Below are positions 1,163-42,377 of a stretch of 64,000 nucleotides of DNA, piece after piece. This DNA is from an uncultured Verrucomicrobiota bacterium. Lineage in GTDB: Bacteria; Verrucomicrobiota; Verrucomicrobiia; Limisphaerales; UBA8199. The notes beneath the pieces were generated by a model that did not search any database, was not told where the DNA came from, and saw only the letters and a program-made list of their open reading frames with translations. The stretch's first letter is position 1. Each line of letters begins with the position of its first letter. Both the position numbers and the translations under genes were made by a program. Location of the stretch: the NCBI GenBank assembly GCA_903873945.1, contig CAIQQM010000018.1, forward strand, positions 30,719 through 94,718, read 5' to 3'.

Positions 1163-1229
1163 AAGGGCAAGGGCGCAACCGTCGCTATTTCCAGAAAAGC
1201 TGCGCGTCGGCTGCGCCGGCTTCCCTGGA

Positions 1230-2714: not shown

Positions 2715-3076
2715 GGGTAGTGGCGAGCCAGGCGAGTTTCAGCGCCGGGTTCTATCATGGGATAAAATATGAGAGTCCAATGAGAACTGCGAACGTCAAA
2801 ACGAACCGAACGGCCGGTCACCGAAGTAAGTTCGAAATCCACAGCGCCGAGCTTAAAAACATCCACCTGAAATTCACTGAAATAACCGTCGTTCTTGTTA
2901 ATTCAAAAACCTCCGCGAACGGAGCTGGTCGACACACAACTTTTAGCCTTTTGTACCCAGCAGGCGCAAACCCGGTCGGCAAGGTCTCGAAACGGATTGT
3001 CAATTCCGGACGACCAGCGAACCCCGCACCCGGCCGCTTTCCTGCGGCCATACGGGTTCGCGGTCTCGAACTACGC

Positions 3077-3406
3077 TTACTTCTTGAAAGTGCGCATGTG
3101 GGCGACGAGCGCCTTAGCGTCGTTGTCGGAGATACCTTCGGCGGGCTTCATCATGATCTTGCCATCCTTGTCTTTCCACCCATCTTTAATGGCCTTTAGT
3201 GCGGCATCATCCTTAAGCTCTGCCTGCACCTTGGGATCGCTATAATCCTTCGCTCCCAGCCTCTTGCCCATCTTGGTATCGCCTTTACCATCAGCTCCAT
3301 GGCACTTGGCGCAGCTTTGTTCATACGCGACCTTGGCATCGGCCGCACAGGCGGACAGAGCTGGAACCGCCCAAGCGACGACCAGCATCAGTAATAATTT
3401 CCTCAT
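3077..3406 (-). CDS. Small monoheme class I cytochrome c (secreted)
   Basis: 109 aa with a signal peptide and a single CAKCH motif. It is a paralog of 6201..6530. Confidence 0.85.
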   Translation of the reverse strand: MRKLLLMLVVAWAVPALSACAADAKVAYEQSCAKCHGADGKGDTKMGKRLGAKDYSDPKVQAELKDDAALKAIKDGWKDKDGKIMMKPAEGISDNDAKALVAHMRTFKK

Positions 3407-3513
3407 ATTTTTTCCAGGTTATTTCTAGTTCAACTCACTGTCATCTCGGGCCGGAACTTCAGCCGGCGGAAAAGCGAATTCCTTGCCGGGTGTTCCCTTC
3501 CCGAAAATCATAT

Positions 3514-4752: not shown

Positions 4753-4753
4753 G

Positions 4754-5563: not shown

Positions 5564-6018
5564 GGAACCTCCGTTGGGCTGTGAGGCACATGGCATTCTG
5601 TGCACTTGGATCCGGCGTAATGGGCCTTGCTCGCGATCTGCTTTAACCATTTTGGCCGGGATGGGCTCGCTTGATGGCACCGCACACAGTGGCCATAATT
5701 CAACATCTCCATTTTCACGTCCGGGTTGTCGGCATGGGCCTGGCCCGTGCCGTGGCAGCTCTCACAGGAAAGTGTCTTGTGCTCGTGCTTAACGAGTGCC
5801 TGGTATTCGTCCGAGTGGCACTCTGCGCAAGCCGCTTTGCCCGCATAGACCGGTTCGCGTTTCGCGAGTTCCGCGAGCGCTTCTCCCCGATACCAACCAT
5901 ATTCTCCAAAGGAGTCCGGAGTCAGAAAATAACGTGCTATCGAATAAACCACCACGATCCCCAGCGCGAGTAGGAAGATCCGGAAAACTTGCGGCGGCAT
6001 TCTAAATAAGCGGCTCAT
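5560..6018 (-). CDS. Membrane-anchored tetraheme cytochrome c
   Basis: 152 aa with an N-terminal TM helix and four CxxCH motifs (CAECH, CESCH, CVRCH, CTECH). Confidence 0.85.
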   Translation of the reverse strand: MSRLFRMPPQVFRIFLLALGIVVVYSIARYFLTPDSFGEYGWYRGEALAELAKREPVYAGKAACAECHSDEYQALVKHEHKTLSCESCHGTGQAHADNPDVKMEMLNYGHCVRCHQASPSRPKWLKQIASKAHYAGSKCTECHVPHSPTEVP

Positions 6019-6200
6019 GGCCCAGTCAATTTTCGTCTACGGCAACGATAATAATTTTAAGTGTTATTAAGAGCAAGAGAATCTAAGGATTGCCCCCCCG
6101 TGCAGCTTTTCTTCCCGTGCCGATTTATTACCTTATTTCGTCTTCCGGACCGACAAAAAGGGGAGCCGGCAAGGCTCCCCAACAAATATTTGAGCGTTTA

Positions 6201-6530
6201 CTACTTCTTAAACGCGCGGACGTATGCGGCGAGCGCCTTAACTTCGTCATCGCTCAACGCATCGCTAAAACCCTTCATTCTAACCTTGTCCCCCTCCTTG
6301 ACCCCGTCTTTAATGGCCTTGGTCATTTCAGCGTCCTTGAGAGTCCCCTGCACTTTGGCATCAGTATAATCCCTGATCTCCAGTTTCTTACCCATCTTCG
6401 TGTCGCCCTTACCATCCGGACCATGGCACTTGGCGCAGTTCTTCTCCCAAAGCTCTTTAGCATCTGCGGCACGAACTGAAACAACTCCCGCGACTAGCAG
6501 AGCTAGGCTGCAAACAATAAGTTTTTTCAT
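6201..6530 (-). CDS. Small monoheme class I cytochrome c (secreted), paralog of 3077..3406
   Basis: 109 aa with a signal peptide and a CAKCH motif. My hand count of an ungapped alignment gives 55/109 identical positions to the 3077..3406 product. Confidence 0.85.
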   Translation of the reverse strand: MKKLIVCSLALLVAGVVSVRAADAKELWEKNCAKCHGPDGKGDTKMGKKLEIRDYTDAKVQGTLKDAEMTKAIKDGVKEGDKVRMKGFSDALSDDEVKALAAYVRAFKK

Positions 6531-6958
6531 GATTGTGTTTTTCCTTTGGTTGGCTTTGTTGTCTTTGACGTATTACGGCTGCCTTTGTTCAACACTGCGG
6601 GGAAATCACTTTATCCCCCGCAAGCAAAGAATCAATGCTTACCATCATTCCCGAACGGTCGCTAAGATTATGCCAAATTGAACGCGCCGCTAGCAATTAA
6701 ATTCTTCTTTAAAGGTATACCAGTTATACTTATCCAAGTCGGAGATCGGTGGGAATCGGCGAAGAGCCGGCACCCCCGAACGTGTTGGCGATTTCAGCCT
6801 GTTTAAACCGAGTGGGCCGTCTGGCCATGTTCATTAGGGATATTCAATTGGATTTACGCGAAAATCAACCAATCCGTTGGCCGCCAAAAAATGTCCAATA
6901 TTTGGCAAGCACCGTGTAGTCCGGGATTTTCTTTGAAAGTAAGTTGGACTGAGAAATT

Positions 6959-7879
6959 GTGGAAGAACCCACTCAAAGTACTATTGTGTCGGCTGATCTT
7001 CTGGAGAAAAAGCGGAAAACTCCAGTTCGGACCAACGGCTCGTTGGAAACGGCGTTCGGCTCTCCGCGTGATTTCTGGGATAACCGATATGTCTATGCCG
7101 TGGTCTCCGCCCGTGCCCGAGGCTTAGCCGTGGGAGTTAACCTGTGTCCCAACAAAAACTGCAACTTCAACTGCGTTTATTGCGAAGTGCATCGAAACGG
7201 GGAACTGCGCGAACAGCTGGATGTGGATGTGATGGCTGCGGAGTTGAGGAAGACGCTGACTTTCGTGAATGGAGACCGTCTGCGCGAGCGTCCATGGTAT
7301 CGTGCGCTGCCCGACGATCTGCTGCAACTTCGCCATGTGGCCTTGAGCGGCGATGGAGAGCCAACCCTTTCGAGCAAGTTCGCCGATGCGCTCCAGGCGG
7401 TTGTGCATGTTCGGGCATTAGGCGGTTTTCCATTTTTCAAGCTTGTCCTCCTGACGAATGCGACCGGGCTGGATTTGCCGCAGGTGCAGCAGGGGTTGAA
7501 ATATTTCACAAAAAGCGACGAGGTTTGGACCAAGCTCGACGGCGGCACACAAGCCTATGTCAACAAGGTTAACCGGGGGAATATTCCGCTCGAAAAAATC
7601 CTGTCGAATATCCTGCTGCTCGGTCGCCAGCGGCCGGTGGTAATCCAGAGTCTCTTTCCCGCGATCAATGGCGAGGAACCGCCGCTGGAAGTCATCGAGC
7701 AATATGCGCAGCGCCTGGTGGAGCTGAAGAATGCGGGCGCCCAGATCTCGCTCGTGCAGATTTATTCCGCTACCCGTCCGACCCCAAACTCTGAAACCGG
7801 TCATCTGCCGCTCAAAGTGCTATCGCGCATTGCTCAGATGGTGCGACAAACAACGGGGTTGCAGGCCGAAGTTTTCTAG
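6959..7879 (+). CDS. Radical SAM protein (function unknown)
   Basis: 306 aa with a GTG start. It has the CxxxCxxC motif CNFNCVYC and the downstream LSGDGEPTL motif. There is no SPASM-type C-terminal Cys cluster. Confidence 0.8.
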   Translation: MEEPTQSTIVSADLLEKKRKTPVRTNGSLETAFGSPRDFWDNRYVYAVVSARARGLAVGVNLCPNKNCNFNCVYCEVHRNGELREQLDVDVMAAELRKTLTFVNGDRLRERPWYRALPDDLLQLRHVALSGDGEPTLSSKFADALQAVVHVRALGGFPFFKLVLLTNATGLDLPQVQQGLKYFTKSDEVWTKLDGGTQAYVNKVNRGNIPLEKILSNILLLGRQRPVVIQSLFPAINGEEPPLEVIEQYAQRLVELKNAGAQISLVQIYSATRPTPNSETGHLPLKVLSRIAQMVRQTTGLQAEVF

Positions 7880-8290
7880 TCTGCTGTCCCCAACGCTTCT
7901 TTACAACGAGTGCTCTTTTCGAGGATGGCGTCGGCACGCTTGGTCCAAACGAACTTTTTGGGGTCTCGATTGTGTCCGACCATGTAGGCTTTGATGGCGG
8001 CAATCATCTCCTGAACACTCTGGAAGGTGCCGCGGCGGATCCGTTAGCGGACGATTTCGCCAAACTACCTTTCCATAGGTTGAGCCAGGAACTGCTGGTG
8101 GGGATGAAATGAAAATGAAAGCGCGGATGTTTTGCTTGGCTGCCTACTGGATGGCGCGAGGCGCCCCGCCGCTGATGCGCATTGCGTATCCTGAAAACAC
8201 GGAACCTGCAGCGAAGAAGGCGTCGCCCCTCGAAGGGAAAGCTGATACCTGATCCGGACCGCTTCTGCCTCCTGCCGCTTCCCTCCAATA
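7876..8290 (-). pseudogene. IS630-family transposase C-terminal remnant (frameshift plus in-frame stops)
   Basis: The minus strand reads ...AKHPRFHFHFIPTSSSWLNL, then a frame break, then ER*FGEIVR*RIRRGTFQSVQEMIAAIKAYMVGHNRDPKKFVWTKRADAILEKSTRCKEAL*. This matches the conserved IS630 C-terminal pattern (HFTPTxxSWLNxVE ... PKPFxWT). Only about the last third of a transposase is present. Confidence 0.6.
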
Positions 8291-8304
8291 AAGGGGAGAG
8301 CGCC

Positions 8305-9303
8305 TTACTTGGAGATGGGGAACTGGGAAATTGCCTTCATGTATTGGGCACGTTCGAAAGCGCTGGGCTCGGCACAATTCTTCTGGCTCAGGCTCCCCTT
8401 CAACTGGCTCACCGATTCGTATTCGTGCTCTTCCATCCAGGCGATGAGGTCCTGCTCGACGACGCTGATCTGCCGCACGCCATGGCGGATGAGCGCGGAA
8501 CAAAGCATTGTGACATCGGCGCCGGCCATGAGCATTTTAAGCGCGTCAGAAGCGCGGTGGATGCCGCTGGTGGCGCATAAGTTTGCGCGTAATTTGCCAT
8601 AAAGGAGCGCAATCCAGCGCAAAGGCACGCGCATTGCCATGGGGGTGCTGAGGAGGATGTTTGGTTTGACTTCGAGGCTTTCGAGGTCGATGTCGGGCTG
8701 GTAAAAGCGGTTGAAGAGTACAAGGCCGTTGGCGCCGGCCTGGTCAAGGCGGCGAGCCATGTTGGCGAAGTTGGTGAAGAAAGGGCTGAGCTTGACCGCA
8801 ACCGGGATGGTGACGACTGACTTGACCGACTTGAGGATGTCGAGATAGGTCTGCTCGACTTGAGCGGAGGTGAGGTTCTCGTCCGTGGGAATATAATAGA
8901 TGTTCAGTTCCAAGGCGTCAGCGCCGGCCTGCTGAATGGCTTTGGCGTACTGAGTCCAACCGCCCGCGGAGGAGCCGTTGAGGCTGGCGATGATGGGAAT
9001 GTGAACGGCCTGTTTGGCTTTGCCGATATGCTTGAGGTATTCCTCCGGGCCAAGTCGAAACGACTCCGGCTCGGGAAAGTAGGTGAGGGCCTCGGCGAAA
9101 CTTTCGGTGCCGTGCTCCAGGTGACGGGCCAGCTCGGCCGTATCTTGGCGAAGCTGCTCTTCGAACAAGGAGTAGAGCACGACGGCGGACGCGCCGGCAT
9201 CCTCCATTTGTTTGATGGAGTCGACTTCTTCAGACAAAGGGGAAGCTGCGGGAACGAGCGGGGTGCGCAGTTTCAATCCGAGATAGGTGGTTGAGAGATC
9301 CAT
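8305..9303 (-). CDS. Dihydroorotate dehydrogenase-like (PyrD-family TIM barrel) protein
   Basis: 332 aa with an N-terminus typical of class 1 DHOD-like proteins ([24 protein letters not shown]...). It lies immediately downstream of PFOR. Confidence 0.75.
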
Positions 9304-9398: not shown

Positions 9399-12300
9399 TC
9401 AAGGTTGCTGGTCAACAGAGGTTTGCGGTTTTGCGGCTGTTGCAGGAGCGGCACCGGTCTTGAAATCGCGACCGGCCATGTACTGGTAATACTTCCAGCG
9501 CTGATCGGCGTCACACTGGGCCTGGGCGAAGAACTTCTTGGCGTCCTCGGGTTTGCTCTTGGTGAGCATCTTGAAACGGTTTTCAGAGAACAGATAGTCC
9601 TGAACTTTGGATTTGGCGGCAGATGAGTCGAGCTGCAGCGGGTTTTCCCCGCGTTGGACGCGGCGGGGATCGAAGCGATAGAGGAGCCATTGGCCGGACT
9701 CGACGGCGAGTTTTTGCTGACGGGCGCCGACACCGGCATCAATCGCAATGCCGTGGGCAATACAGTGGCTGTAGGCGATAATCAGGGAAGGTCCGGGATA
9801 GGATTCAGCTTCCAGGAAGGCTTTGAGAGTGTGCTCATCCTTGGCGCCCATGGCGACGCTGGCGACATAAATATGGCCGTAAGTCATAGCGATGAGGCCG
9901 AGATCTTTTTTGCCAACCGGTTTACCGCCGGCGGCGAACTTGGCGACCGCGCCGCGCGGGGTGGACTTGGAGCATTGGCCGCCCGTATTGGAGTAAACCT
10001 CGGTATCGAGCACGAGGACGTTGACGTCGCGTCCGCTGGCGAGAACATGGTCGAGGCCGCCGTAGCCAATATCATAAGCCCAGCCGTCGCCGCCGACGAT
10101 CCAGACACTCCTGCGGACAAGGTGATCGACGAGAGTCAAAAGCAACCTTGCTTCATTGGTATTCAGGCCGGCCAGTTTTTGCTTCAAGGCCGCGACGCGC
10201 TCACGCTGGTCGTAAATGCCGGCTTCGTCGCTCTGGTCAGCTTTGAGGATCCCATCAACGAGGTCAACGCCGACGGTACCCGCCAATTTTTGGAGAAGCT
10301 CGCCCGCGAATTCCTTTTGCTTGTCAATGGAGACACGGAAGCCGAGGCCAAATTCGGCGTTATCCTCGAAGAGTGAATTGCACCACGTCGGGCCGCGGCC
10401 CTGAGCATTGGTCGCGTACGGAGTGGTGGGGAGATTGCCGCCGTAAATGGAAGAACAGCCGGTGGCATTACCAATGACCGCACGGTCACCGAAGAGCTGG
10501 GTGAGCAGCTTGAGATAGGGGGTTTCGCCGCAACCGGCGCAAGCGCCCGAGAATTCGAAGAGAGGTCGCATGATCTGCTGCTGGCGGAGCGCGGTGAGCT
10601 TGATTTTGCGACGGTCCATTTCCGGCAAGGCAAGGAAGAAATTCCAGTTGTCGTGTTCCTGCACGCGAAGAGGAGCTTGAGGCCGCATGTTGATTGCCTT
10701 GAGTCTGCTTTCGGTTTTGTTCCGGGCCGGACAAACGTCCACGCAGAGGGCGCAACTGGTGCAATCTTCGGCGGCAATCTGGAGAGTCCATTTCATCCCC
10801 TTCCATTCCGGCGCGCGGGCGTCGGTGGCTTTGAACGTGGCCGGAGCGCCCGCCAATTCCTTCGGCTCATAAACTTTGGCGCGGATAGTTGCGTGCGGGC
10901 AGATGGCCACGCACTTCATGCACTGGATGCAAACGGCCTCATCCCAGACAGGGATGTCAATTGCGAGATTCCGTTTTTCGTATTGGGCGGTTGCAGTGGG
11001 GAATGTGCCATCGCAGGTGAAGGCGCTGACCGGGAGATCATCCCCCAGGCCACCAGCGATTTTACCGAGGACATTACGGACGAAATCGGGAGCGTCGGGA
11101 GAGACCGGAGGCAGATATGGTCCGGCGCCGTTGACTTTGGCTGTCAGGGGCACTTCATGGAGATGGGCCAGGGTATTGTCCACGGCCTTGAGGTTCATCT
11201 GGACGATTTCCTCACCCTTCTTGCCATAAGTCTTGCGGATGGAGTCTTTGATCGCTTCGATGGCCTCGTCCTTGGGGAGAACGCCGGAGAGGGCGAAGAA
11301 GCAGACCTGCATGATGGTATTGATTCGGCCGCCCATGCCGCTGTCGCGGGCGACTTTCGTGGCATCAATGATAAAGAAATGGACCTTCTTCGCGATGAGG
11401 GTTTCCTGGACGGGCGTGGGCAAGTGCCGCCAAATCTCCTCCTTGGGATACGGCGTATTGAGAAGGAAGGTGCCGCCGTTGACGAGAGGTTTGACCATGT
11501 CATAGCGTTCGAGGAAGACGGGTTGATGGCAGGCGACGAAGTTAGCCTGCGAGATGAGATAGGTGGAACGAATCGGCTCGGGTCCAAACCGAAGATGGGA
11601 AACGGTCATCGATCCCGATTTCTTGGAGTCATAAACGAAATAACCCTGAGCGAAGTTTGGGGTACCTTCGCCGATGATCTTGATGGAATTCTTGTTCGCA
11701 CCGACGGTGCCGTCAGCGCCGAGGCCGAAGAACATGGCGCGGATGACGCTGTCGGACTCGGTGGAAAATTCAGGATCGTACGGCAGGCTCGTGTGAGAAA
11801 CATCGTCGTTGATGCCGACGGTGAAATGGTTTTTGGGAGATGGCAGAGCGAGGTTATCAAACACGGCTTTGACCATCGCTGGAGTAAACTCCTTCGAGGA
11901 AAGGCCATAGCGTCCGCCAAGAATCTTCGGCGCGGACTTGAGTTTGCCCCAACCACTGGCCAGACCTTCGAAAACGGCGGAGACAACATCCTGGTAGAGA
12001 GGTTCACCAGTCGCCCCGGGTTCCTTGGTGCGGTCAAGGACGGCGATAGACTTGACGGTGGCGGGCAGGGCTTCAACGAAGCGCTTGCCGTCGAACGGGC
12101 GGTAGAGGCGGACTTTGATGATACCGAGCTTTTCCCCCTTCTGAAGGAGGTAATCGACAGTTTCGTGAGCCGGATCGCAGCCAGACCCCATGAGCACCAC
12201 AACGCGTTCGGCATCGGGCGCGCCGACGTAATCGAAAAGCCTGTATTTTCGGCCAACGCGAGCGCCGAATTCATCCATGACCTTCTGGGTGATATCGGCG

Positions 12301-13097
12301 CAAGCGGCGTAGAACGGATTAACGGTTTCGCGAGCCTGGAAGAAGACATCGGGGTTCTGGGCGGTGCCGCGCAAGACGGGGTGGTCGGGACTCATGGCGC
12401 GGGCGCGGTGAGCGGCGATAAGCCGGTCGTCAATGAGCGCGCGCATATCGTCGTCTTTGAGAACGGAAATCTTGGAGACTTCATGCGAGGTGCGGAAGCC
12501 ATCGAAGAAGTGGATAAAAGGGATGCGGGAGCGGATCGAAGCAGCCTGGGCGATGAGGGCAAAATCCATCGTTTCCTGGACGGAAGCAGCGCCAAGCATA
12601 CCCCAACCCGTGGAGCGGCAGGCCATGATGTCGCCATGGTCGCCAAAGATCGAGAGGGCATGGGCGGCGACGGTGCGGGCGGTAACATGAAAAACGGCCG
12701 GAAGCAGTTCCCCGGCGATCTTGAACATGTTGGGGATCATGAGCAAGAGACCCTGGGAAGCGGTGAAAGTCGTGCTAAGGGTGCCGGTTTGGAGAGCCCC
12801 GTGGACAGCGCCGACGGCACCGCCCTCGCTTTGCATTTCGACAATGGCGGGGATGGTATTCCAGAGGTTCAGCTTGCCCTCGGAGGCCCATTGGTCGCAC
12901 CACTCGGCAATGGGAGAAGACGGGGTGATGGGATAGATGGCCATGACCTCATTGAGCCGGTAGGCCACATAGGCGGCGGCTTCGTTGCCGTCCAGAGTTT
13001 TGAAGGAAGATTTGGATTTGGCGGCTTTGCCCGCGGAATGACCGGCGGACGGGTGAGCGTCCTTGCCAGCAACTAAGGAGGATTTAGTCGGCGTCAT
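9399..13097 (-). CDS. nifJ: Pyruvate:ferredoxin (flavodoxin) oxidoreductase
   Basis: 1232 aa single-chain PFOR. It has the internal 2x[4Fe-4S] domain (CIQCMKCVAICPHA, CTSCALCVDVCP) and the TPP-binding region GDGWAYDIGYGGLDH. Confidence 0.95.
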   Translation of the reverse strand: MTPTKSSLVAGKDAHPSAGHSAGKAAKSKSSFKTLDGNEAAAYVAYRLNEVMAIYPITPSSPIAEWCDQWASEGKLNLWNTIPAIVEMQSEGGAVGAVHGALQTGTLSTTFTASQGLLLMIPNMFKIAGELLPAVFHVTARTVAAHALSIFGDHGDIMACRSTGWGMLGAASVQETMDFALIAQAASIRSRIPFIHFFDGFRTSHEVSKISVLKDDDMRALIDDRLIAAHRARAMSPDHPVLRGTAQNPDVFFQARETVNPFYAACADITQKVMDEFGARVGRKYRLFDYVGAPDAERVVVLMGSGCDPAHETVDYLLQKGEKLGIIKVRLYRPFDGKRFVEALPATVKSIAVLDRTKEPGATGEPLYQDVVSAVFEGLASGWGKLKSAPKILGGRYGLSSKEFTPAMVKAVFDNLALPSPKNHFTVGINDDVSHTSLPYDPEFSTESDSVIRAMFFGLGADGTVGANKNSIKIIGEGTPNFAQGYFVYDSKKSGSMTVSHLRFGPEPIRSTYLISQANFVACHQPVFLERYDMVKPLVNGGTFLLNTPYPKEEIWRHLPTPVQETLIAKKVHFFIIDATKVARDSGMGGRINTIMQVCFFALSGVLPKDEAIEAIKDSIRKTYGKKGEEIVQMNLKAVDNTLAHLHEVPLTAKVNGAGPYLPPVSPDAPDFVRNVLGKIAGGLGDDLPVSAFTCDGTFPTATAQYEKRNLAIDIPVWDEAVCIQCMKCVAICPHATIRAKVYEPKELAGAPATFKATDARAPEWKGMKWTLQIAAEDCTSCALCVDVCPARNKTESRLKAINMRPQAPLRVQEHDNWNFFLALPEMDRRKIKLTALRQQQIMRPLFEFSGACAGCGETPYLKLLTQLFGDRAVIGNATGCSSIYGGNLPTTPYATNAQGRGPTWCNSLFEDNAEFGLGFRVSIDKQKEFAGELLQKLAGTVGVDLVDGILKADQSDEAGIYDQRERVAALKQKLAGLNTNEARLLLTLVDHLVRRSVWIVGGDGWAYDIGYGGLDHVLASGRDVNVLVLDTEVYSNTGGQCSKSTPRGAVAKFAAGGKPVGKKDLGLIAMTYGHIYVASVAMGAKDEHTLKAFLEAESYPGPSLIIAYSHCIAHGIAIDAGVGARQQKLAVESGQWLLYRFDPRRVQRGENPLQLDSSAAKSKVQDYLFSENRFKMLTKSKPEDAKKFFAQAQCDADQRWKYYQYMAGRDFKTGAAPATAAKPQTSVDQQP

Positions 13098-33004: not shown

Positions 33005-34981
33005 TCAAGGCAAGCCCAGCCCTACCTGCAGGTCTGTTGGCGGGCGAGGGCGGCTGGTGGGATTGGTTGTCCACGTGCTTCCATTCCAATAAAACGTGGT
33101 CACCTGCGTATTGGTGAGAGTGACGCTGCTGGTCATGGTTTGGTCGAAATAGACCGGCACAGATGCCCCGCTGTAAGCCGCGTTGGTGATGACAATGGCC
33201 GCGTCGGATGGAATATGGCCGGCATCCGCCGTTACCAGATAATTGGGGACGCTTGCACTGTATGGGTAGGTCATCCGATACCGTGAACCGCCGCCATAGC
33301 TAATGGCGTTGGTCGGGCCCCACTCGCCATTCAGGATGATGGTTCCCCAATAATTGTTGTTGGTGGAAACATCTGAATAGGAGGCCAAAATGTTATCGGT
33401 TTCAAACTTGACTCCTCCACTTTGCCCACTTAAGTCATTGGAATAAACATTGCAGTTGGTTACCCAATTTTGCGTCCACACAAAGGTTAACCATTGCTGT
33501 CCAACTAGGGTGTTATTGTAAAACTTGACTCCATCTATGCGAGCAGGATCATCGTAGCCACTTCCACCATTAAGCCACAACGCTTTGGCACTGTTTGAGA
33601 CATAATTTCTGTAGATTACAATATTGGTGTTGCAGGCATCCGGCGATCCTGCCTGCGCTCCTGATTGCCCAATAACAAAGGCTATGTAGTTGTAGCTTCC
33701 AGTATTCAACAAACGATTGCTGCAAACGGTCACATTTGCCGCCGGGCAGGTGGCGATGACGTTGCCGCTGAAATCCACATACATCAGGTTGTTGGAAATG
33801 ACGTAGGGCTGATTGGTCAACGTGCCGCCGTTCAGCGAAATGACATTATGTTCCATGTTGGTGACATAATTGTTGATGAAGCGGGAGGGGCGCACATCGG
33901 AGTATTTCAAATAAAATTCTTCAACCTGATACATGTTCGAGAACGTGCAACCAGTGATGGTATGCGAGGTGTTGTAGTTGAACGCCGTAGCGTTGCCGTC
34001 CGTGAAAATGCAGTTGGTGACCACCGTGTCGGCTCCGCCGCCATCCGTGCCGGTGAGCCCTTTGAGCATCTCGCCTCGAAAATGCTGGAATTTGCAGCGT
34101 GCAAATGTTTTCAAGACCGGCAGCGGGTCACTGCCCAAATCCACGCTTGCCGCAGACGATCCGTCCCAGCCACGCCCATCAAAAGCGTTTGCATATTCAC
34201 TGGCACCATAGCCGTTGTGACCCACCGGCAATCCCCCGTCAAATGTGAGGTTGGTGAATACAATGGGGTAGTTGTTTGTAATCGGGCCTTGAACCGTGAA
34301 GATAAACCCGCGAAGGCAGATTTGAGCATAATTGGTCTGTTTGGGCGCATAATTATAGACCCATGAACCGCTTTGCTGCTTCCACGCGCCATCACCCATC
34401 AAGACGGTCGAATCACGGTCTGCGCCCACGAAACTCAATCCACCGCCGTGAATGGCAAAGCCGGCGTCCAGGGGGATGAAAAAATCCGGGTTGGGAACAA
34501 AGTTGGTGTATTGGATGGCCGGAAGCATCAAAAAGGTTCCCGCCGGAATGTTGATGATGGTGTTCGTGCCGCTGGCGGCATTGATCGCCGCCTGAAAACT
34601 GGCGGAATTATCCGTGCCATAGATGCAATAAACACCGTTGGAAGTCACCTGCGGAACATCACCGGAAATGTATGCCGTATTGCCGGCCACATTGGTAATG
34701 ACGGCAATCATGTCTTGGTAATTCGTTGACCAAACCCCGGTGATGTTGTTGCCAATCCGTTTCCGACCCACGGCAAACAGTTCAATCGCCTTGCCAATGG
34801 CGGCGGCGGACAGCGTATTGGTAAAGCCCACCGCCACGGAATTGCTCGTAGTATGCACCCAAACTTGCCGGGCGTCGCCTTTGGCACCAAAGCTGGTGAC
34901 ATTTAGTGAGCTTAGGGCGTGGGCAGAGAGGGAAGCCACGGTTAGCGTCAAAATCACGAGATTTCGAATCAGTTTGCTCAT
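33005..34981 (-). CDS. Secreted right-handed beta-helix protein (pectate-lyase-3/tailspike-like); candidate polysaccharide-modifying or -degrading enzyme
   Basis: I trimmed the start to MSKLIRNLVILTLTVASLSAHA (ATG at 34981). A signal peptide is followed by VTSFGAKGDA, the typical start of pectate_lyase_3 domains. The rest is Asn/Gly/Thr-rich with repetitive beta-helix character. Confidence 0.65.
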   Translation of the reverse strand: MSKLIRNLVILTLTVASLSAHALSSLNVTSFGAKGDARQVWVHTTSNSVAVGFTNTLSAAAIGKAIELFAVGRKRIGNNITGVWSTNYQDMIAVITNVAGNTAYISGDVPQVTSNGVYCIYGTDNSASFQAAINAASGTNTIINIPAGTFLMLPAIQYTNFVPNPDFFIPLDAGFAIHGGGLSFVGADRDSTVLMGDGAWKQQSGSWVYNYAPKQTNYAQICLRGFIFTVQGPITNNYPIVFTNLTFDGGLPVGHNGYGASEYANAFDGRGWDGSSAASVDLGSDPLPVLKTFARCKFQHFRGEMLKGLTGTDGGGADTVVTNCIFTDGNATAFNYNTSHTITGCTFSNMYQVEEFYLKYSDVRPSRFINNYVTNMEHNVISLNGGTLTNQPYVISNNLMYVDFSGNVIATCPAANVTVCSNRLLNTGSYNYIAFVIGQSGAQAGSPDACNTNIVIYRNYVSNSAKALWLNGGSGYDDPARIDGVKFYNNTLVGQQWLTFVWTQNWVTNCNVYSNDLSGQSGGVKFETDNILASYSDVSTNNNYWGTIILNGEWGPTNAISYGGGSRYRMTYPYSASVPNYLVTADAGHIPSDAAIVITNAAYSGASVPVYFDQTMTSSVTLTNTQVTTFYWNGSTWTTNPTSRPRPPTDLQVGLGLP

Positions 34982-35236
34982 GGAACGATCACTTTTCACA
35001 ACAATTGTTTTAGGGTGACACAAAATTAAAACATCATTTCAGCCAGCTCCTGTCAGCGGCCCAAAAGCAATAAAATGATACAGTCGCCAGCACGCTGCCA
35101 AAGTTCGTGACAAATCCGCTGCTCAAAACTGACTGGTCATGCATTCCAATTCATTTCAAGCAAAGTCCATGCCGTCTCCGGCTTTTAAGCGCTGCTCTTC
35201 GTTGGTTTTGCCGTGGAAAAACGCCCGGCGCTGTGT

Positions 35237-36498: not shown

Positions 36499-37373
36499 GA
36501 TTTTTTGAGCACCCTGGCGGCGCGCGTCTGCTCAAACAGTTTCACGCGGTCGCTCCAGAAATCACCGAGGGTTCGCCACAAGGCCACGCCCTCCAACGAG
36601 GTTGAGGCGCAGCAAAACAGGCTTCCCAAATTGTGAATCTTTGGACGTCCAGCGCCCGCGAACGACAACAGCACATCTTCGCCGTTCGCAAGATTGGTCA
36701 TGTCGGTGATGCCCATTTGACCAGCCAGTGCAAACAGCCGGTCCAAATGCCGCCGGGTGAAAGCATACGCGCCGATCAATACGTCCACCTCGGTGTTTTT
36801 TTCACTGACATGATGAAACGGGCTGCCGTTTGAAGAGGCCGTGCCGGGCAGATAAAGGTTGCCCGTCAATCCATGCGGAACTTTTTCGTCATCCAGCAGC
36901 CGCTTAAAAAAAACGGCCCATTGCGCGGGAGTTGGAAAAATATCGTCGTCCACCGAGAGGAAATAATCCCCCGGTTCCGCCGCCGCCAAAACAAAACGAT
37001 AGCCTGGACGGGTCGGCTTGGTTTCATCCACCAAAACCAGTCGCGGATCCACCAGTTTGACATGCTCGGCGATGCGCACCTTATGATTGCTATTGGAGAC
37101 GATGACCTTTTGCACGAAGCTGTTTTTAAGCGCGCCGGCGACCAGCAGAGGCAGGTTTTGCGGACGGTTATGACTGAGCAGGATGACCGTGCATCGCTTG
37201 TTTCCAGTATTGACAGCGTCCGTTTCAGGTCGAGCCAATGTCCGACACCAAGCCTTATATCGAGTCAACAATTGAAGTGCCTCAACAACGATGAAGAGTT
37301 TGTGCTTAAAACTGCGCCGGCCGGAGAAAGTCTGAAATAGATAGCGATATTGAGCTGATAAAAAAGCATCCAT
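36495..37373 (-). CDS. Putative GT-A glycosyltransferase, GT64 (exostosin C-terminal)-like
   Basis: 292 aa. It has VILLSHNRPQNL, the DxD motif LSVDDDIF, and NGEDVLLSF, which resembles the GT64 CEDIxMNF motif. Confidence 0.5.
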   Translation of the reverse strand: MDAFLSAQYRYLFQTFSGRRSFKHKLFIVVEALQLLTRYKAWCRTLARPETDAVNTGNKRCTVILLSHNRPQNLPLLVAGALKNSFVQKVIVSNSNHKVRIAEHVKLVDPRLVLVDETKPTRPGYRFVLAAAEPGDYFLSVDDDIFPTPAQWAVFFKRLLDDEKVPHGLTGNLYLPGTASSNGSPFHHVSEKNTEVDVLIGAYAFTRRHLDRLFALAGQMGITDMTNLANGEDVLLSFAGAGRPKIHNLGSLFCCASTSLEGVALWRTLGDFWSDRVKLFEQTRAARVLKKS

Positions 37374-37392: not shown

Positions 37393-38640
37393 TCAGCGGC
37401 TGGCGGTCGCAAGACCGGTGGTCTGCAATTCTTCGTAAAGCTTCATGTAGCGCGCGGCCATCAAAGTGTCTGTGAACGACTGAGACACCCGCTGGCGCCC
37501 GACCAGCCCCATGGCGCGGCGCTCTCCGGGATGCTGGCGCATCCATTGCAACATCCGCACCAGTCCGGGCACACTGCCGATTTCCGGTTCCAGCAGGCCA
37601 GTCTTGCCGTCGGCCACCACCTCCCGCAAACCGCTGGTGGCGTAGGCCACGACCGGGGTTTCGCAGGCCATGGCCTCCATTGCCGTGTTGCCAAACGTCT
37701 CCATCCGGCTGGGGGTGGCAAAGACGTCGAGCGCGGAATAAAACAAGCTTTGCAGTCGGGCATGGTTTAAGTTGCCAAGCTGCAAGGTTTCAATGCCGGT
37801 GGTTTCAGGCCAGCGGCCAGCCCCAAAGGTGATGAGAAAAATCTCACTGGCCGGCAAGGTTTTTAACGCCTCCAACAATAGGCCGGCACCTTTGCGCGCC
37901 TCCGTGATATCCGCACTGGCAAAACCGATGACAAACCGATTGTCAGGTATTCCGAGCGCACGCCGCGCCGACGTTTTCTCCACCGGTTTGCATTGTTCGG
38001 GATCGAGTCCCAGATGAATGGTGCGAATGGATTTGGCATATTTTGCCAGCCCGGAACGACGGATTTGGGAGGAGGTCCATTCGCTGTTGCCAACGAAATG
38101 GAGGTTTTTCCCGGCGTAGCAGCGCTCCTTGATTCTAAAAAACTTGAAAGTAGCGTCGTGCGGGGCGGGGCGTTTCTTTTGGGGACAGTTGCCGCAATGC
38201 CGGGTAAATCCTGCGCAATCACCCGGATAATGACAGCCGCCGGTGATGGGAATCAAATCGTGAAGAGACCAAACCACCGGCAACCCCGGAGGTAACGAGT
38301 CCAGAAAACTGGGCAAATCCAGCCATTGCGCCACCCAGTGAAGATTGACGATGGCCGGGTTCGCGCCAAGTGCGTGAACCGAGGTTTTACGGATCCAGCG
38401 TGGGCTGGTCACAAATCCGCCTTCGATTTGTCTGCGCCCGCGCCAACTTTTTGCCAAAGCCACGGCATTTCGCAAAAAGAAAGTGTGATTCTGAAAAGCC
38501 GGTTGCATGGTGGCATCCACTGTTTCGCCAGCCCCATAAAACATCTGGCTCCGGACACTGGCGCGGCACAGAGCCAAATGCAGTCGTTGGGCGGCGATCC
38601 CGGCTCCGCCGGATAATTGTGATGTAAAATGTGCGATCAT
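37393..38640 (-). CDS. Glycosyltransferase GT4 with a 4-Cys insertion
   Basis: 415 aa with HDLIPITGGCHYPGDCAGFTRHCGNCPQ and C-terminal ETFGNTAMEAMACETPVVAY. It is a paralog of 39926..41188. Confidence 0.85.
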   Translation of the reverse strand: MIAHFTSQLSGGAGIAAQRLHLALCRASVRSQMFYGAGETVDATMQPAFQNHTFFLRNAVALAKSWRGRRQIEGGFVTSPRWIRKTSVHALGANPAIVNLHWVAQWLDLPSFLDSLPPGLPVVWSLHDLIPITGGCHYPGDCAGFTRHCGNCPQKKRPAPHDATFKFFRIKERCYAGKNLHFVGNSEWTSSQIRRSGLAKYAKSIRTIHLGLDPEQCKPVEKTSARRALGIPDNRFVIGFASADITEARKGAGLLLEALKTLPASEIFLITFGAGRWPETTGIETLQLGNLNHARLQSLFYSALDVFATPSRMETFGNTAMEAMACETPVVAYATSGLREVVADGKTGLLEPEIGSVPGLVRMLQWMRQHPGERRAMGLVGRQRVSQSFTDTLMAARYMKLYEELQTTGLATASR

Positions 38641-39919
38641 GCCTGGATGGTTGCCCGTTTGTTGTGTTCCGCCATTTGAACTCGTTCAGGTTCGATTTCC
38701 AATGCCTGTTGATAGGCCTGTTCAAATCGTTCCACCACCTTGGACCATAAAAATGATTCCGAAACCAGATGACAGGCATCTCCGATTTGTTGACACAGTT
38801 CGGGATGGTTCAGGAGTTTTTGCAATCCCTCGACCAGTTCGTCCACCGTGAGCCGTGCCTTGTTATTTTGATCATCCGTCTGCCCCAGTAACAAGGCGGC
38901 GTTAGTCTGGCCCAGCAGTTCACGCAGCACGGGCAAATTGCGGCCAATCACCGGCTTGCGATATCGGCCGGCTTCCATGTAGACCAGCCCGAACGATTCG
39001 CCCTCGGAGGGCACGCACAGACAGGTGCAGGCCGCCAGTGCGTCATGCTTCTCGTTCTCGGACACATATTCCAGTTCAATAACACCAGGCAACGGCTTCA
39101 CCTCTGCGTCCGGCGCAGATGGCCCCAGGCAAACCAGGGTCACTGCCGGATTTTTTTTTGCAGAAATTTGAACGCCTCCACCATCAGGGGATACCCCTTG
39201 TCCACCGCTTTGCGACCGATGTAAAGAATCATTGGTCCTTCAATCCGATGTTTGGCCCGGAAACGATCACCTTGGCCATCGGCACGGTCTTCAATGCCAT
39301 TATAGACGACATCTATCGGGCAATTTATGCCCCGCGAAGTAAAATAGTCCCGCTCGTAGCAGGTATGAACCAACAGCCGATTCGACTGGCGATAAAGCTG
39401 AAAGTCCAATTTGGAATCACCAAAATTAAACGGATGCGCCGTGGGCTGAACCAGAAAGGGCGTCCCGTGGCGCTTCGCCGCTTGTGCGGCGGCAAACCCG
39501 GCCAAGGCCGTGGCGTGGCCAACATGATGAATAATGTCAAAGCCGGCAAAAGCCGCCCGCGCCGGTGCGGCGGCCACCATTTCATAAAGCGTTGCCGCCA
39601 ATCCGGTCGCTGCCGGCCGCGCGGCCAGCTTCAGAATGATCCAAAGCACCGGCGACCAAGCATAGGAAAGGCAGAGCACCCGCACCGGAACACCGTTCAC
39701 ATGAATATCGTCCGCCGGTTCGTTGAAGAACAGATAATCGTCCCGCACCGGGATGCGTGTGGCGCTGCGGGTAATGACCGTGACTTCATGTCCGCGTAAC
39801 CGGAGATGCTTGCACAAGTTTTGCGCGTGCGCCTGCAATCCACCCGTATTGGGAGTGAAACTCCAGATGCTGATTCCAATTTTAAGCTGCCGTCGGGTCA
39901 TTTGATTTGCCGAGGCCAA
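38637..39919 (-). pseudogene. GT4 glycosyltransferase split into two ORFs (39140..39919 and 38637..39143) by a frameshift at an A9 run
   Basis: The upstream ORF encodes the N-terminal Rossmann domain and ends ...EAFKFLQKKIRQ*. The downstream ORF encodes the C-terminal domain (ESFGLVYMEAGRYRKPVIG). With one extra A the sequence reads ...FLQKKNPAVTLVCLGPSAPD..., a continuous GT4 sequence. Confidence 0.75.
39151..39159. repeat. Homopolymer T9 (A9 on the coding strand) at the GT frameshift site
   Basis: Read directly: ccgga ttttttttt gcag. Confidence 0.95.
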
Positions 39920-39925
39920 ACCGTG

Positions 39926-41188
39926 TCAGCCCCTGAGTAGCGACTCATAGAGCGCAATGTAGGCCGTCGCGTTTTTGGCGTAGGAAAAATTTTTCTGTGC
40001 CCAGTCCGCCGCCGAGTTTGCCCAGCGAGTTCTCAACTCCCGATCTTGCAGCAATCCTGAAATTGCTTGGGAAAGCGCGCCAGCATGATCCCGTTCCACC
40101 AGCCGGCCATTCAGTCCGGATTCGACGATGTCCATGATTCCACCCACCGCGAATCCCGCCACGACCGTGCCGCAGGCCGCCGCCTCCAGCGCCGTCTGCC
40201 CGAACGCTTCTTCCAGCGAGGGAATCACAAAAACATCCGCCGCCCGGTAAATCAGGGCCTGCAATTCATCGCTTTCCACGCGCCCAAAATGAGTGTGCTG
40301 AAAACGAGAACCGGCCTTGAAATTTCCAGCGCCCATGGTCAACAGACGCATTTTTCCGGTCAACGACAAGCCCGCCATCGCCTCATGTAGCAGATGCCCG
40401 CCTTTGTGCTTCAGACTCAAGTCGTGGGCGGCAAAGGCCACCACGTTTTCGTCCTGGCCGATGCCGAACGCCTCACGCGCCTCGCGTCGCCGTTCGGGCG
40501 AATAGACGGATTGATCCAGTCCATAATGAATGACCTCCACGCGCCGGCTGCGGGCCAGGCCGCTGTGCCGGGCCATTTCACCCGTCCAGTGGCTGTTGGC
40601 TGCAAAGGCAAAATGCGCATTTGACCGCGTGGTATAAGCGGCCTGCCGCCAATTAAAAATCTGCCGCGAATAATCGCCGTGAGAATTGGAGTTCAAAATC
40701 GGACAGGTTCCGCATTGTTTCTCAAAACGGGTGCATTCGCCGGGATAATCGCAGCCGCCGGTGATCGGGCTGAGGTCGTGCAACGTGATGACCACCGGTT
40801 TGGTGGCGGGAATGCGAGACAGCAATGCCGGCAAGTCCGCGAAACGCTCGGTCTTGTGGAGGTTGATGACGTCCGCCTCGGCCAGCTCCGTCGTCATGCC
40901 CCGCAGTAGGTCGGCCCGCGGATCCGTCAGCCCGCAAATAATTTTTCCCCCGTGGCTGCGCGACTGCCGCTCCTGATGCGCGATCCATTTTCGCCTCAAG
41001 GTTCGCGCGACGCGGTCTGCCAGACTGCGGTTGCCGGGAAAAACAGTCACCGCCGGGTCGTCCGAATGCCGGTGCCGCACCAGCATTTGGGAATCAACCC
41101 CGTGTTGGCGCAGGGCCAGATGCTGGCGATAAGTCGCCCGGGCGGCTCCGCCAAAATTGTCGTGGGTGGCGAGGTGAAGAATTTTCAT
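39926..41188 (-). CDS. Glycosyltransferase GT4 with a 4-Cys insertion
   Basis: I trimmed the start to MKILHLATHDNFGGAARA (ATG at 41188). It has HDLSPITGGCDYPGECTRFEKQCGTCP and C-terminal EAFGQTALEAAACGTVVAGF. Confidence 0.85.
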   Translation of the reverse strand: MKILHLATHDNFGGAARATYRQHLALRQHGVDSQMLVRHRHSDDPAVTVFPGNRSLADRVARTLRRKWIAHQERQSRSHGGKIICGLTDPRADLLRGMTTELAEADVINLHKTERFADLPALLSRIPATKPVVITLHDLSPITGGCDYPGECTRFEKQCGTCPILNSNSHGDYSRQIFNWRQAAYTTRSNAHFAFAANSHWTGEMARHSGLARSRRVEVIHYGLDQSVYSPERRREAREAFGIGQDENVVAFAAHDLSLKHKGGHLLHEAMAGLSLTGKMRLLTMGAGNFKAGSRFQHTHFGRVESDELQALIYRAADVFVIPSLEEAFGQTALEAAACGTVVAGFAVGGIMDIVESGLNGRLVERDHAGALSQAISGLLQDRELRTRWANSAADWAQKNFSYAKNATAYIALYESLLRG

Positions 41189-41228
41189 TGTGCTCCTGCA
41201 AATCAATGGCTGCCGGAACCAGTCCGGT

Positions 41229-42377
41229 TTACTGGCTGACCATCCATTGTTTTCCTGGCCGGCCATCGGCGGCTGACAGACTGCTTTCGAGATATTGTTT
41301 CAACGGATCAGGATGGATGGTGAATCTCGTGTCGAGATAGTCTGTCAAGTTTTCGGTCATCGGCCCCATGATGCTGCCATAGTCATGGCCCAGCATCGTG
41401 GCCCATTTCCAAAACCACGGTCGCGGGGCAAAGTGTGAATCTTGCAGTTCAAAAAGCCGGGCGGGTGGACAGAACAAAAGATTCGTCAAACCGGCTCCAT
41501 ATGCGCCCATTACCTGGCGTGCCTTTGAAAATATTTTGACCTGTTGCGCCAAGGTGTGATTTTCCGGCCGGATCACCTTATAACCGTAGCTTTCAACCAA
41601 CGGAAGCAACTCGTCTTCGTTGGCAAGCCTCTTCATATGCACACTGTTTCTTGAAATAAAAATCCGCTCGGGTGACGGTTCGCTGCCCTGACCATGCGTC
41701 TGTAGCAAGGCTTCCCTGACTTGCCGAACCATCTTGGCGTTCCAAACCATGTCGTTGACGGGCGTGGCATGCCAGAGGCGCTCGCAGCGCGTTTCGTAAT
41801 AGCCTTTGACCGGGATCAAACGGTCGCGACCGATGCCCAAGGCCGACAGCGATTCCAACTTGAATTGCTGGATGGGATCGCTGATGATGAACTGGGTGGC
41901 CGGGGGCAAAAAGGGCAGGGCGGTTGCCAGCTTCGGCATTTCATCCGACAACCAATGTCCATAATTGGCCGAGAATAGCAGGTCCAAATAGTAGCAGTCG
42001 CCATCCAAACTTAGTTTGTGACGGCGAAATCTTGATCGGGAAATGTCGGACAGCTTGAAATCTCTGACGCGCCAGTCGCTTTCCGCCAGAAACTCACCCG
42101 ACGGGATTTTGACCAGCCCGCCCAAAGTGGAGGCGCCCGGGATACAAACCAGATATTGAGCCGGGAACTCTATTCGTCCATGTCTTTCAAGAGTATCCTT
42201 AATGTTTTGGGGTATTCCCTCCGAATCCGGCACGGAAAATTCCAGCTTGAAGGGTTCGTGAATTTTTTCAACCGGCCACCGTTTCGACAACGCGTGATCC
42301 AGCATCCTGCCGCAAAACTTTGGCCGGGCGGAATTGACGATGGGATTCCAAACGGATTTCTTTAGCAGCTTGAGCAT
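41229..42377 (-). CDS. GT61/DUF563-like glycosyltransferase
   Basis: 382 aa. The motifs YGHWLSDEMPKL and GAYGAGLTNLLFCPP match the DUF563 pattern (GHWLxDxLP ... HGAGLTN). Confidence 0.65.
   Translation of the reverse strand: MLKLLKKSVWNPIVNSARPKFCGRMLDHALSKRWPVEKIHEPFKLEFSVPDSEGIPQNIKDTLERHGRIEFPAQYLVCIPGASTLGGLVKIPSGEFLAESDWRVRDFKLSDISRSRFRRHKLSLDGDCYYLDLLFSANYGHWLSDEMPKLATALPFLPPATQFIISDPIQQFKLESLSALGIGRDRLIPVKGYYETRCERLWHATPVNDMVWNAKMVRQVREALLQTHGQGSEPSPERIFISRNSVHMKRLANEDELLPLVESYGYKVIRPENHTLAQQVKIFSKARQVMGAYGAGLTNLLFCPPARLFELQDSHFAPRPWFWKWATMLGHDYGSIMGPMTENLTDYLDTRFTIHPDPLKQYLESSLSAADGRPGKQWMVSQ

Follow-up and report, generated by a model that had tools for sequence, protein, structure and literature searches.

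An A9 homopolymer splits a GT4 glycosyltransferase gene that is intact, with A10, elsewhere in the same population of an uncultured lake bacterium

The window, i.e. the whole 64-kb stretch of DNA analysed here, stems from an uncultured freshwater bacterium, apparently related to the Verrucomicrobiia. In an exopolysaccharide (EPS) locus it carries a glycosyltransferase gene that is interrupted at a homopolymer and lies between two intact glycosyltransferase genes. The relevant features, with the basis of each assignment in brackets, are:

37393..38640, minus strand: intact downstream glycosyltransferase, 415 aa, with a Glycos_transf_1 domain (Pfam)
38637..38640, minus strand: ATGA in which the stop codon of the split gene overlaps the start codon of the glycosyltransferase that follows (sequence)
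38637..39901, minus strand: interrupted GT4 glycosyltransferase gene, GT-B, retaining-type (translations, Pfam, 96% identity to P0001, AF2 model)
38973..38999, minus strand: E302-x7-E310 motif (EGESFGLVYMEAG) in the donor-binding C-terminal Rossmann domain (invariant columns of the alignment)
39140..39142, minus strand: premature TGA in the A9 frame, four codons past the tract (translation, 253 aa ending QKKIRQ*)
39141..39143, minus strand: GTG overlapping the premature stop (GTGA), start of a 168-aa C-terminal ORF (ORF list)
39151..39159, minus strand: A9 homopolymer (T9 on the plus strand), with C 39160 and T 39150 on either side (sequence)
39153..39159, minus strand: A_AAA_AAA heptamer in zero-frame phase, CA-A AAA AAA ATC (sequence)
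39926..41266, minus strand: intact upstream GT4-type glycosyltransferase, 446 aa (Pfam)

The split gene begins at ATG 39901-39899 and ends at its natural stop 38639-38637. It splits exactly at C-A9-T, where the minus strand reads ...TTC AAA TTT CTG CAA AAA AAA ATC CGG CAG TGA. A first-pass annotation had described a GT4 gene divided at this A9 run with its C-terminal part in the -1 frame up to the stop at 38637, and the translations confirm this arrangement. Its N-terminal ORF indeed ends in FKFLQKKIRQ*; the TTG at 39919, from which that ORF had been drawn, is only an alternative start, since the homologues begin with MTRRQLK, and initiation at ATG 39901 yields a 253-aa product. Both pieces are called as CDS in the source record, the 168-aa C-terminal piece as P0122, and the GTG that begins the latter and overlaps the stop would be a possible site of re-initiation. 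No other homopolymer in the window is as long as the A9 run, all other A/T runs being 8 nt or shorter, and it is the sole homopolymer that coincides with a frame break. The 64 kb contain no broken gene besides the split GT4 gene; no gene is broken at another homopolymer, and every A/T run of 7-8 nt lies in an intact ORF. Insertion of one A had been proposed to give the continuous sequence ...EAFKFLQKKNPAVTLVCLGPSAPDAEV..., and exactly this sequence occurs in nature with A10. The repaired 421-aa protein is identical to the natural protein P0121 and, over 100% of its length, 96% identical to P0001, a natural protein of 419 aa. As the restored product matches natural proteins and the run is found uniquely at the frame break, the break is real in this sequence and does not reflect a chance juxtaposition of ORFs.

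The repaired protein contains a Glyco_transf_4 domain at residues 20-204 (PF13439, 54.4 bits, cut-off 28.5) and a Glycos_transf_1 domain at residues 214-375 (PF00534, 63.7 bits, cut-off 26.4). An AF2 model of the 421-aa enzyme (pLDDT 88.6, pTM 0.86) adopts a GT-B fold with two Rossmann domains, and its best PDB matches in Foldseek, found with a probability of 1.00, are MshA, GlgM, glycogen synthase, BshA and PimA, with E-values from 8.1e-19 to about 1e-13 among the 50 matches listed. EX7E is the family-defining motif of GT4 / GT-B glycosyltransferases, and all 18 aligned homologues carry both E302 and E310. Domain content, modelled fold and motif together predict that the gene, once repaired, encodes a GT4 / GT-B glycosyltransferase. 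In the model the tract maps to the helix of residues 237-250 and the loop of residues 251-254, where the first helix of the donor-binding domain ends. The cut thus falls inside the C-terminal Rossmann domain, past its first strand and helix, and not at the inter-domain linker. Since the EX7E motif lies downstream of the break, it is absent from the 253-aa product, and with most of the C-terminal Rossmann domain lost the A9 allele should be OFF or at best leaky.

The flanking genes had been described as two intact paralogous GT4 genes. Both are indeed intact GT-B glycosyltransferases with a Glycos_transf_1 domain, but the paralogy is loose: the target shares 27% identity with its downstream neighbour over 111 aa only and gives no BLASTP match with the upstream one, while the neighbours, compared with one another, reach 33% identity. 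In view of the low identity between target and neighbours, redundancy among the glycosyltransferases cannot be assumed. The ATGA overlap suggests translational coupling of the broken gene to the downstream glycosyltransferase, and through such coupling the premature stop could have polar effects on the genes that follow. Compared to the sister lineage, pN/pS is 0.48 for the target and 0.71, 0.11 and 0.13 for neighbouring genes; with 25 substitutions these counts are too small to demonstrate relaxed constraint on the target.

The downstream gene at 37393..38640 served as anchor for finding other assemblies of the same population. Seven metagenome contigs (L004-L010), whose origins span three or more data sources (JGI, ENA, Logan), differ from the window by no more than three substitutions over 664-9,259 aligned bases. 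All seven carry C-A10-T, and the extra A is the sole indel between the window and each of them. Five more contigs, available as gene calls without DNA, have a 421-aa call at the same position. Roughly 10 samples yield A10, among them SAMEA6872785, SAMEA6872795, SAMEA6872760, ERR4193254, ERZ27313098/164 and JGI Ga0114951. In the protein cluster table the A10 protein P0121 is found on 10 contigs and the two A9 fragments on a single 115,906-bp NCBI/ENA contig, which is presumably the window's own source; an exact look-up in the contig index, by contrast, gave no match for the 253-aa fragment. Taken together, the tract is ON in 15 of 16 assemblies and A9 is seen in one of about 16, whereby many of the A10 assemblies come from common studies or samples and are thus not fully independent, and consensus sequences cannot reveal minority tract alleles. 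Exact look-ups in a 15-billion-protein collection returned neither A7, A8, A11 or A12 products nor A9 or A11 products of the sister lineage; high-frequency switching is therefore not visible at the consensus level. One of the seven contigs (L010), the only other one with a 168-aa call, was considered as a second A9 case and rejected: it has A10, its left end is foreign, and the call arises from 33 unrelated bases preceding the match.

The sister lineage (98.3-98.7% nucleotide identity), represented by contigs from NovaSeq/MEGAHIT short-read data, has an in-frame A10-C. More distant homologues at 77% and 69% identity, the latter from a Verrucomicrobiia MAG (L003) that was the sole relative recovered from the GTDB species representatives, are single in-frame ORFs without the tract, and each of more than 120 database homologues (370-457 aa) is a single ORF, none being split. 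Two separate ORFs as the conserved state had been named as an observation that would speak against the first reading of the locus; the opposite was found, one ORF being the conserved state. The intact single ORF with A10 is the population norm. The window also differs from its closest relatives at SNP 40311 in the upstream gene, 1.1 kb from the tract, where it encodes Gly319 (GGT) and the only two contigs covering the site (L005 and L008) encode Asp (GAT). This non-synonymous change is private to the window. At the A7-A8 runs within the 9.3-kb overlap, window and other contigs show 0 differences.

Our preferred reading, which we consider evenly poised between right and wrong, is that A9 represents a genuine slipped-strand deletion, forms the majority allele in the sampled sub-population and switches the gene OFF. 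The normal state would be a single-ORF GT4 gene with a mutable A10 tract in the EPS locus, and a slipped-strand event private to the sequenced record would have contracted A10 to A9. Translation would then halt four codons on, giving the 253-aa product without most of the C-terminal Rossmann domain including EX7E. A few per cent of full-length enzyme might still be produced, either by addition of one A by RNA polymerase or by a -1 ribosomal slip on A_AAA_AAA; from what is established for such sites, both would restore the exact wild-type sequence ...LQKKNPAV.... The premature stop may, in addition, lower expression of the coupled downstream glycosyltransferases.

The main competing explanation, to which we assign a considerable probability somewhat short of even, is that the organism has A10 and that the consensus of one assembly dropped an A in the longest homopolymer of the 64 kb, so that the gene is intact and ordinary. 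The A could have been lost through PCR stutter, at low local depth, when a co-assembly bubble was wrongly popped, or by homopolymer under-calling in long reads. In line with this, the discrepancy is limited to a long homopolymer, and other assemblies of this population disagree with it: the lost A is the sole indel against seven near-identical contigs from several data sources, the A9 products occur in one record compared to 10 contigs for the A10 product, and no further tract length is recorded in the protein collection. A9 moreover differs exactly where PCR stutter, Illumina indels and bubble-popping errors concentrate. What speaks for a real slip is that the window is free of other homopolymer discrepancies and broken genes, so that the assembly is not generally indel-prone. 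The window furthermore represents a distinct haplotype, as seen from SNP 40311, and the absence of A9 elsewhere is thus not evidence of irreproducibility; the record appears otherwise accurate and distinct in genotype. A 115.9-kb contig with two separate CDS calls would fit a short-read MAG, the platform itself being deduced, and a NovaSeq/MEGAHIT pipeline at good depth reports the majority allele. Judging from the related data, such majority-rule calling of a 10-mer should usually be right at the depth of a 116-kb contig. As many metagenomes of the same near-clonal population exist, the reading of A9 as a real allele is cheap to test. Either way, the break is a one-off -1 slip, real or introduced during assembly, of a mutable A10 tract and not a special genetic device.

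A special case of the preferred reading, which we regard as unlikely, is that selection maintains A10 so that one exopolysaccharide sugar can be reversibly switched ON and OFF. The window would then show the OFF phase, A9 having swept, e.g. under fluctuating phage pressure, while slippage on the tract would leave low residual enzyme. Indeed, the tract lies within the ORF and its length sets the frame (A9 out, A10 in), and the gene class and known precedents fit. The intact tract, CAA AAA AAA AAT (QKKN), was built from HAKN (CAC GCC AAA AAT) by four changes, each of them to A, and both sister lineages hold exactly ten A despite an offset of one base (C-A10-T versus A10-C-T). A/T runs in the genes of the window are, moreover, in mild excess over the expectation from synonymous shuffles (19 versus 12.2 for at least 7 nt, 9 versus 4.6 for at least 8 nt). 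Against such a switch, an A10 run appears in 11% of synonymous shuffles of the target gene when the residues QKKN and the window's codon usage are kept, and a run of at least 10 somewhere in the window's genes in 52%. By this measure the tract is neither longer nor commoner than composition and codon usage predict. Length variation among relatives amounts to one A9 record versus about 15 A10 or in-frame assemblies, and this single A9 could be an error; with 15 of 16 assemblies ON, no A8, A11 or other allele is recorded. The tract is missing from the 77% and 69% homologues, and the genome (56% GC) shows no sign of multiple SSR-broken genes. With no other tract length recorded and a tract that codon usage does not make improbable, support for an evolved contingency locus is weak. 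A literature search on phase variation in Verrucomicrobia found nothing specific. We consider it very improbable that A9 is instead the designed state, with full-length enzyme produced only via programmed slippage or -1 frameshifting, which would fix the proportion of short and long products. Runs of at least nine A are slippery for bacterial RNA polymerase, the A_AAA_AAA heptamer is in phase, and either slip would recreate the wild type, but the out-of-frame state is conserved in no relative: near-identical contigs, sister lineage and homologues are all in frame. Since two ORFs are not the conserved state, a slippage-dependent gene, as the first-pass annotation had also suggested, is disfavoured. 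Likewise, no independent role is obvious for the 253-aa product, which ends within a Rossmann domain. A frameshift-stimulating RNA structure was not significant in the 106-nt segment that begins 6 nt ahead of the tract and extends about 90 nt past it (-33.2 kcal/mol versus a shuffle mean of -30.1, z = -0.79). Scarcely credible, finally, is a functional split enzyme, in which the N-fragment of 253 aa would join a C-fragment of 168 aa, made by re-initiation at GTGA, to form an active two-chain GT-B enzyme like Alg13/Alg14. The GTG start does overlap the premature TGA (39140-39143) and both pieces are called as CDS in the source record; the cut, however, falls within the C-terminal Rossmann domain rather than at the inter-domain linker, no homologue is split, and the other contig with the 168-aa call has A10 and a foreign left end.

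In conclusion, the A10 tract finding is ordinary in kind, and as the class of mechanism is well known, little is conceptually new either way. If A9 is real, the locus would represent a natural case of homopolymer slippage switching OFF a surface-polysaccharide glycosyltransferase of an uncultured lake bacterium, for which pressure by phages or grazers would be a likely link. If A9 is an artefact, the 253-aa and 168-aa CDS of the public record should be merged into one 421-aa gene. Should the tract be a true contingency switch, phase variation of surface glycans of the SSR type would reach beyond host-adapted pathogens into planktonic lake bacteria and be seen directly in metagenomes.

With respect to the enzyme, the repaired target shares two Rossmann domains, both Pfam domains and the EX7E motif with retaining GT-B enzymes of family GT4 of solved structure (MshA 3c4q, GlgM 6tvp, BshA 5d01, PimA 2gej, PglA 8dqd), although it is only 15-20% identical to them. 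With respect to the interruption, programmed transcriptional slippage is known, among others, from Shigella mxiE (T9), Thermus dnaX (A9) and the poly(A) rescue in endosymbionts. The A11 tract of C. rodentium tssM1 likewise places an A/T run of at least nine just before a premature stop, an arrangement in which RNA polymerase should insert extra A and bring part of the transcripts back into frame; there, however, the interrupted state is conserved and functional and both products are needed, whereas here it is private to one record (PMC4256274). The GeneTack catalogue assigns a homopolymer frameshift seen in a single genome to sequencing error, recent indel or phase variation and not to conserved programmed shifts (PMC3711429).

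In Campylobacter (poly-G), Neisseria (lgt/pgl) and Haemophilus (lic/lgtC), a tract inside a glycosyltransferase ORF likewise toggles the frame (PMC3025981, PMC5084427, PMC11868660). Those pathogen genomes contain many tracts, mostly poly-G/C or tetranucleotide, which are polymorphic among isolates and statistically over-represented, whereas here a free-living lake bacterium has one A10 tract that is explained by codon usage and whose length polymorphism is seen in the window only. Closer counterparts, in which a one-base change in a coding homopolymer truncates an enzyme of surface-polysaccharide synthesis, are gtr6 (440A9 to 8) and wzx (T9 to 10) of A. baumannii (PMC10249906) and kpsC (7A to 6A) of E. 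coli K96 (PMC13410964). In gtr6, a capsule glycosyltransferase gene, slips from A9 to A8 arise repeatedly under phage selection (PMC10249906), and the kpsC slip is reversible and found in natural isolates too (PMC13410964). The siaD poly-C tract of N. meningitidis, as cited in PMC13410964, belongs to the same class of slipped-strand capsule-gene frameshift. The gtr6, wzx and kpsC variants come from clones that were isolated and re-sequenced, with kpsC also reverted, whereas the present one is known from one consensus sequence of an uncultured population. The likeness nonetheless extends to gene class and tract length, and to a pattern in which the intact form is dominant and OFF forms are sporadic.

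The GT4 glycosyltransferase gene considered here belongs to a large exopolysaccharide (EPS) locus and is interrupted at a run of nine A:

27458-49956, minus strand, large exopolysaccharide locus
39159-39151, minus strand, A9 tract, read from the sequence

On the minus strand the junction reads ...GAG GCG TTC AAA TTT CTG CAA AAA AAA ATC CGG CAG TGA. Hereby, translation of the frame opened by ATG 39901 gives 253 aa ending in FKFLQKKIRQ, and the -1 frame carries on as KKNPAVTLVCLGPS... until the stop at 38637. Insertion of one A in the tract results in a 421-aa protein with the Pfam domains Glyco_transf_4 (residues 20-204) and Glycos_transf_1 (214-375), both above cut-offs. The translations thus confirm what the first-pass annotation had described, namely a gene split exactly at A9, its remainder in the -1 frame, in which one added A restores a continuous, family-typical protein; this A10 protein exists on other contigs. 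The proposed start at TTG 39919 has to be revised, as homologues begin at MTRRQLK, corresponding to ATG 39901. The A9 tract is the longest homopolymer of the window, the remaining A/T runs of at least 7 nt measuring 7-8 nt; such runs lie inside intact ORFs except for four short intergenic ones. Across the dense 64-kb gene map the target gene is the sole broken one.

Each of the 120 homologues listed is one uninterrupted protein (370-457 aa), and the best match, P0001, is 96% identical at 100% query coverage. When 18 sequences are aligned, the junction falls in a variable stretch between conserved blocks, with variants including FKFLQKKNPAV, FKLLHAKNPEV and FQLLRARNPDA. Assemblies of the same population were found via the identical 415-aa downstream gene, used as anchor, and a gapped DNA pattern spanning the tract. 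The near-identical contigs L004 (JGI Ga0114951), L005-L008 (ENA) and L009 (Logan ERR4193254), aligned over 2.5-9.3 kb, show 0-3 substitutions relative to the window and a single gap each, always an additional A yielding C-A10-T; a further such contig, L010, likewise carries A10. Gene calls on five more contigs (ERZ1426834, -811, -813, -564 and -660) place a 421-aa or partial in-frame product at this position. Searched by exact sequence, the A10 protein (P0121) turns up on 10 contigs and the A9 fragments (P0123, 253 aa; P0122, 168 aa) on one 115,906-bp NCBI/ENA contig only, presumably the window's own record, as all other window proteins checked sit there. Exact look-up in the protein collection retrieved neither the products predicted from A7, A8, A11 and A12 tracts nor the sister-lineage A9 and A11 products. 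Judged from these sequences, one uninterrupted ORF is what is conserved, and the out-of-frame state is private to the window's record; two separate ORFs, raised earlier as a possible conserved state, are not what relatives carry.

The sister lineage (contigs L001 and L002, 98.3-98.7% nucleotide identity to the window) reads CTG AAA AAA AAA ACT (LKKKT), i.e. ten A in frame and shifted by one base (A10-C-T vs C-A10-T; window 39150-39160 vs L001:1023-1034 and L002). A 77% homologue has CAC GCC AAA AAT (HAKN) at the tract position and a 69% homologue is without any run there, and the tract is therefore recent. From the sequences compared, the window-type flanks (C...AAT) look ancestral. The two lineages differ by two substitutions, one at either tract end, with exactly ten A kept in both; by our own post hoc arithmetic, the chance of two changes in 12 nt is ~0.01 at 1.3% overall divergence.

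The AlphaFold2 (AF2) model has a pLDDT of 88.6 and a GT-B fold, with MshA, GlgM, glycogen synthase, BshA and PimA as best PDB matches; by its predicted sequence and structure, the 421-aa protein qualifies as a GT4/GT-B enzyme on each defining feature tested. In the model, helix 1 of the C-terminal domain (237-250) ends within the tract-encoded Q248-N251, which also starts the loop to strand 255-259. According to alignment and model, all that the 253-aa product retains of the donor-binding domain is its first strand and helix; the invariant E302-x7-E310 is lost, and by itself the product should be inactive. As the natural stop overlaps the ATG of the next gene (ATGA, 38637-38640), a polar effect of the premature stop on downstream glycosyltransferases is plausible. 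The flanking glycosyltransferases, described previously as two intact paralogous GT4 genes, are indeed intact and 33% identical to each other. Close kinship with the target does not hold (27% over 111 aa with one, no hit with the other), and since they are so remotely related, loss of the target enzyme would probably not be buffered and would change or abolish the polymer.

The first-pass reading is partly supported: the interruption and its A10 repair stand, and the transcriptional-slippage-dependent gene is very unlikely, given the single ORF conserved in relatives. The target gene lacks the conservation expected of programmed recoding. Slippage as a designed state was dropped, the two-frame layout being kept in no relative and the RNA from the tract to ~90 nt downstream folding no more stably than its shuffled versions (z = -0.79). 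On the A9 allele slippage would be a passive property, with A insertion by RNA polymerase or a -1 ribosomal slip restoring the wild type. The rate of A insertion by bacterial RNA polymerase climbs exponentially as the run lengthens (PMC5574713), and the A11 run of tssM1 gives transcripts carrying 10-15 A (PMC4256274). An A_AAA_AAA heptamer within the tract is in phase for the ribosomal slip. The sequence shows that either slip would recreate the unaltered wild-type protein (LQKKNPAV), and an A9 allele would therefore probably be leaky rather than null.

Further observations concern the locus and its surroundings. L010 (ERZ18624489; 697 bp, reported in 2 samples) aligns to the window from 39170 towards lower coordinates. 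Its AT-rich first 33 nt (L010:1-33, ATACTAAATAAATTAAACAACATAATTATACGA) are unrelated to the window or other loci, with the breakpoint ~10 nt upstream of the tract; the contig may be chimeric at this end, or a genuine junction left by a rearrangement or insertion may lie beside the tract. The final ~100 nt of L008 (L008:3367-3464; window ~37182-37187) no longer align to the window; the alignment breaks off within a 292-aa gene, past two clustered mismatches. This contig end may likewise be chimeric, or the EPS locus may carry a strain-specific replacement here. The only other indel vs the sister lineage (L001) is at window 35025, in a short A/T-rich stretch (TTTCAAATTTT vs TTTTAA-TTTT) 2 bp upstream of TTG 35023, the mechanically listed start of ORF 33005-35023. 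The EPS locus encodes a BBP2_2-type outer-membrane protein, a Poly_export (Wza-like) protein, a 718-aa AAA_31/Wzc-like protein, an ABC exporter, GT-D-like, GT61 and GT2 proteins and at least six GT-B glycosyltransferases; two large proteins (672 and 522 aa) gave no Pfam hit. Another assembly has the same gene order and sizes on a contig of 97.7 kb. The upstream 446-aa glycosyltransferase ORF shares 38 nt with the preceding GT61 gene (41229-41266) and is started further downstream, giving 420 aa, in other assemblies, so that its true start is uncertain. Of the 23 A/T runs of at least 7 nt, 21 fall in 24000-56000 (the EPS locus plus ~6 kb flank on the high-coordinate side), 18 of them inside intact ORFs; AAA makes up 58% of Lys codons in a window of 56% GC. 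Elsewhere we note:

9399-13097, pyruvate:ferredoxin oxidoreductase, 1232 aa
13150-15960, acetyl-CoA synthetase (ADP-forming)-like/acetyltransferase fusion, 936 aa
61390-61463, minus strand, single tRNA gene; Rfam gives no other match in the window at its gathering threshold

The first two suggest an anaerobic lifestyle, consistent with the hypolimnion and bog samples.

Whether A9 is a real slipped-strand OFF allele appears to us an even call. In its favor, the window contains no second homopolymer discrepancy or broken gene, and its private SNP 40311 sets it apart as a haplotype of its own within a nearly clonal population: codon 319 of the upstream 446-aa glycosyltransferase is GGT (Gly) in the window, whereas L005 and L008, which alone among the contigs span this site, have GAT (Asp). 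The other contigs of the population derive from NovaSeq/MEGAHIT data (PMC8121793), in which the consensus tracks the majority allele; the 116-kb contig with its two Prokka-style CDS would fit such an origin. Single-nucleotide slips in A7-A9 tracts are well documented for capsule genes; they are phage-selected or spontaneous, and some revert (PMC10249906, PMC13410964). An artefact is nonetheless a serious possibility, as A9 occurs in 1 record of ~16, the window departs only at its most error-prone site and no further off-length allele is on record.

Were the allele real, it could further belong to an evolved contingency locus, which we consider unlikely. The retention of exactly ten A despite changes at both tract ends points in this direction, as does a mild excess of A/T runs in the window's genes over synonymous-codon shuffles (at least 7 nt, 19 observed vs 12.2 expected; at least 8 nt, 9 vs 4.6), with fractions of 0.013 and 0.026 of shuffles, respectively, reaching the observed count. 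Against it, an A10 run arises in 11% of this gene's synonymous shuffles, and, at the level of consensus sequences, no length polymorphism beyond the window's single A9 is on record.

In conclusion, the event is ordinary in kind, homopolymer frameshifts being familiar in surface-polysaccharide genes. If an artefact, A9 amounts to a one-base annotation problem; if real, the target gene adds a further case to this class.
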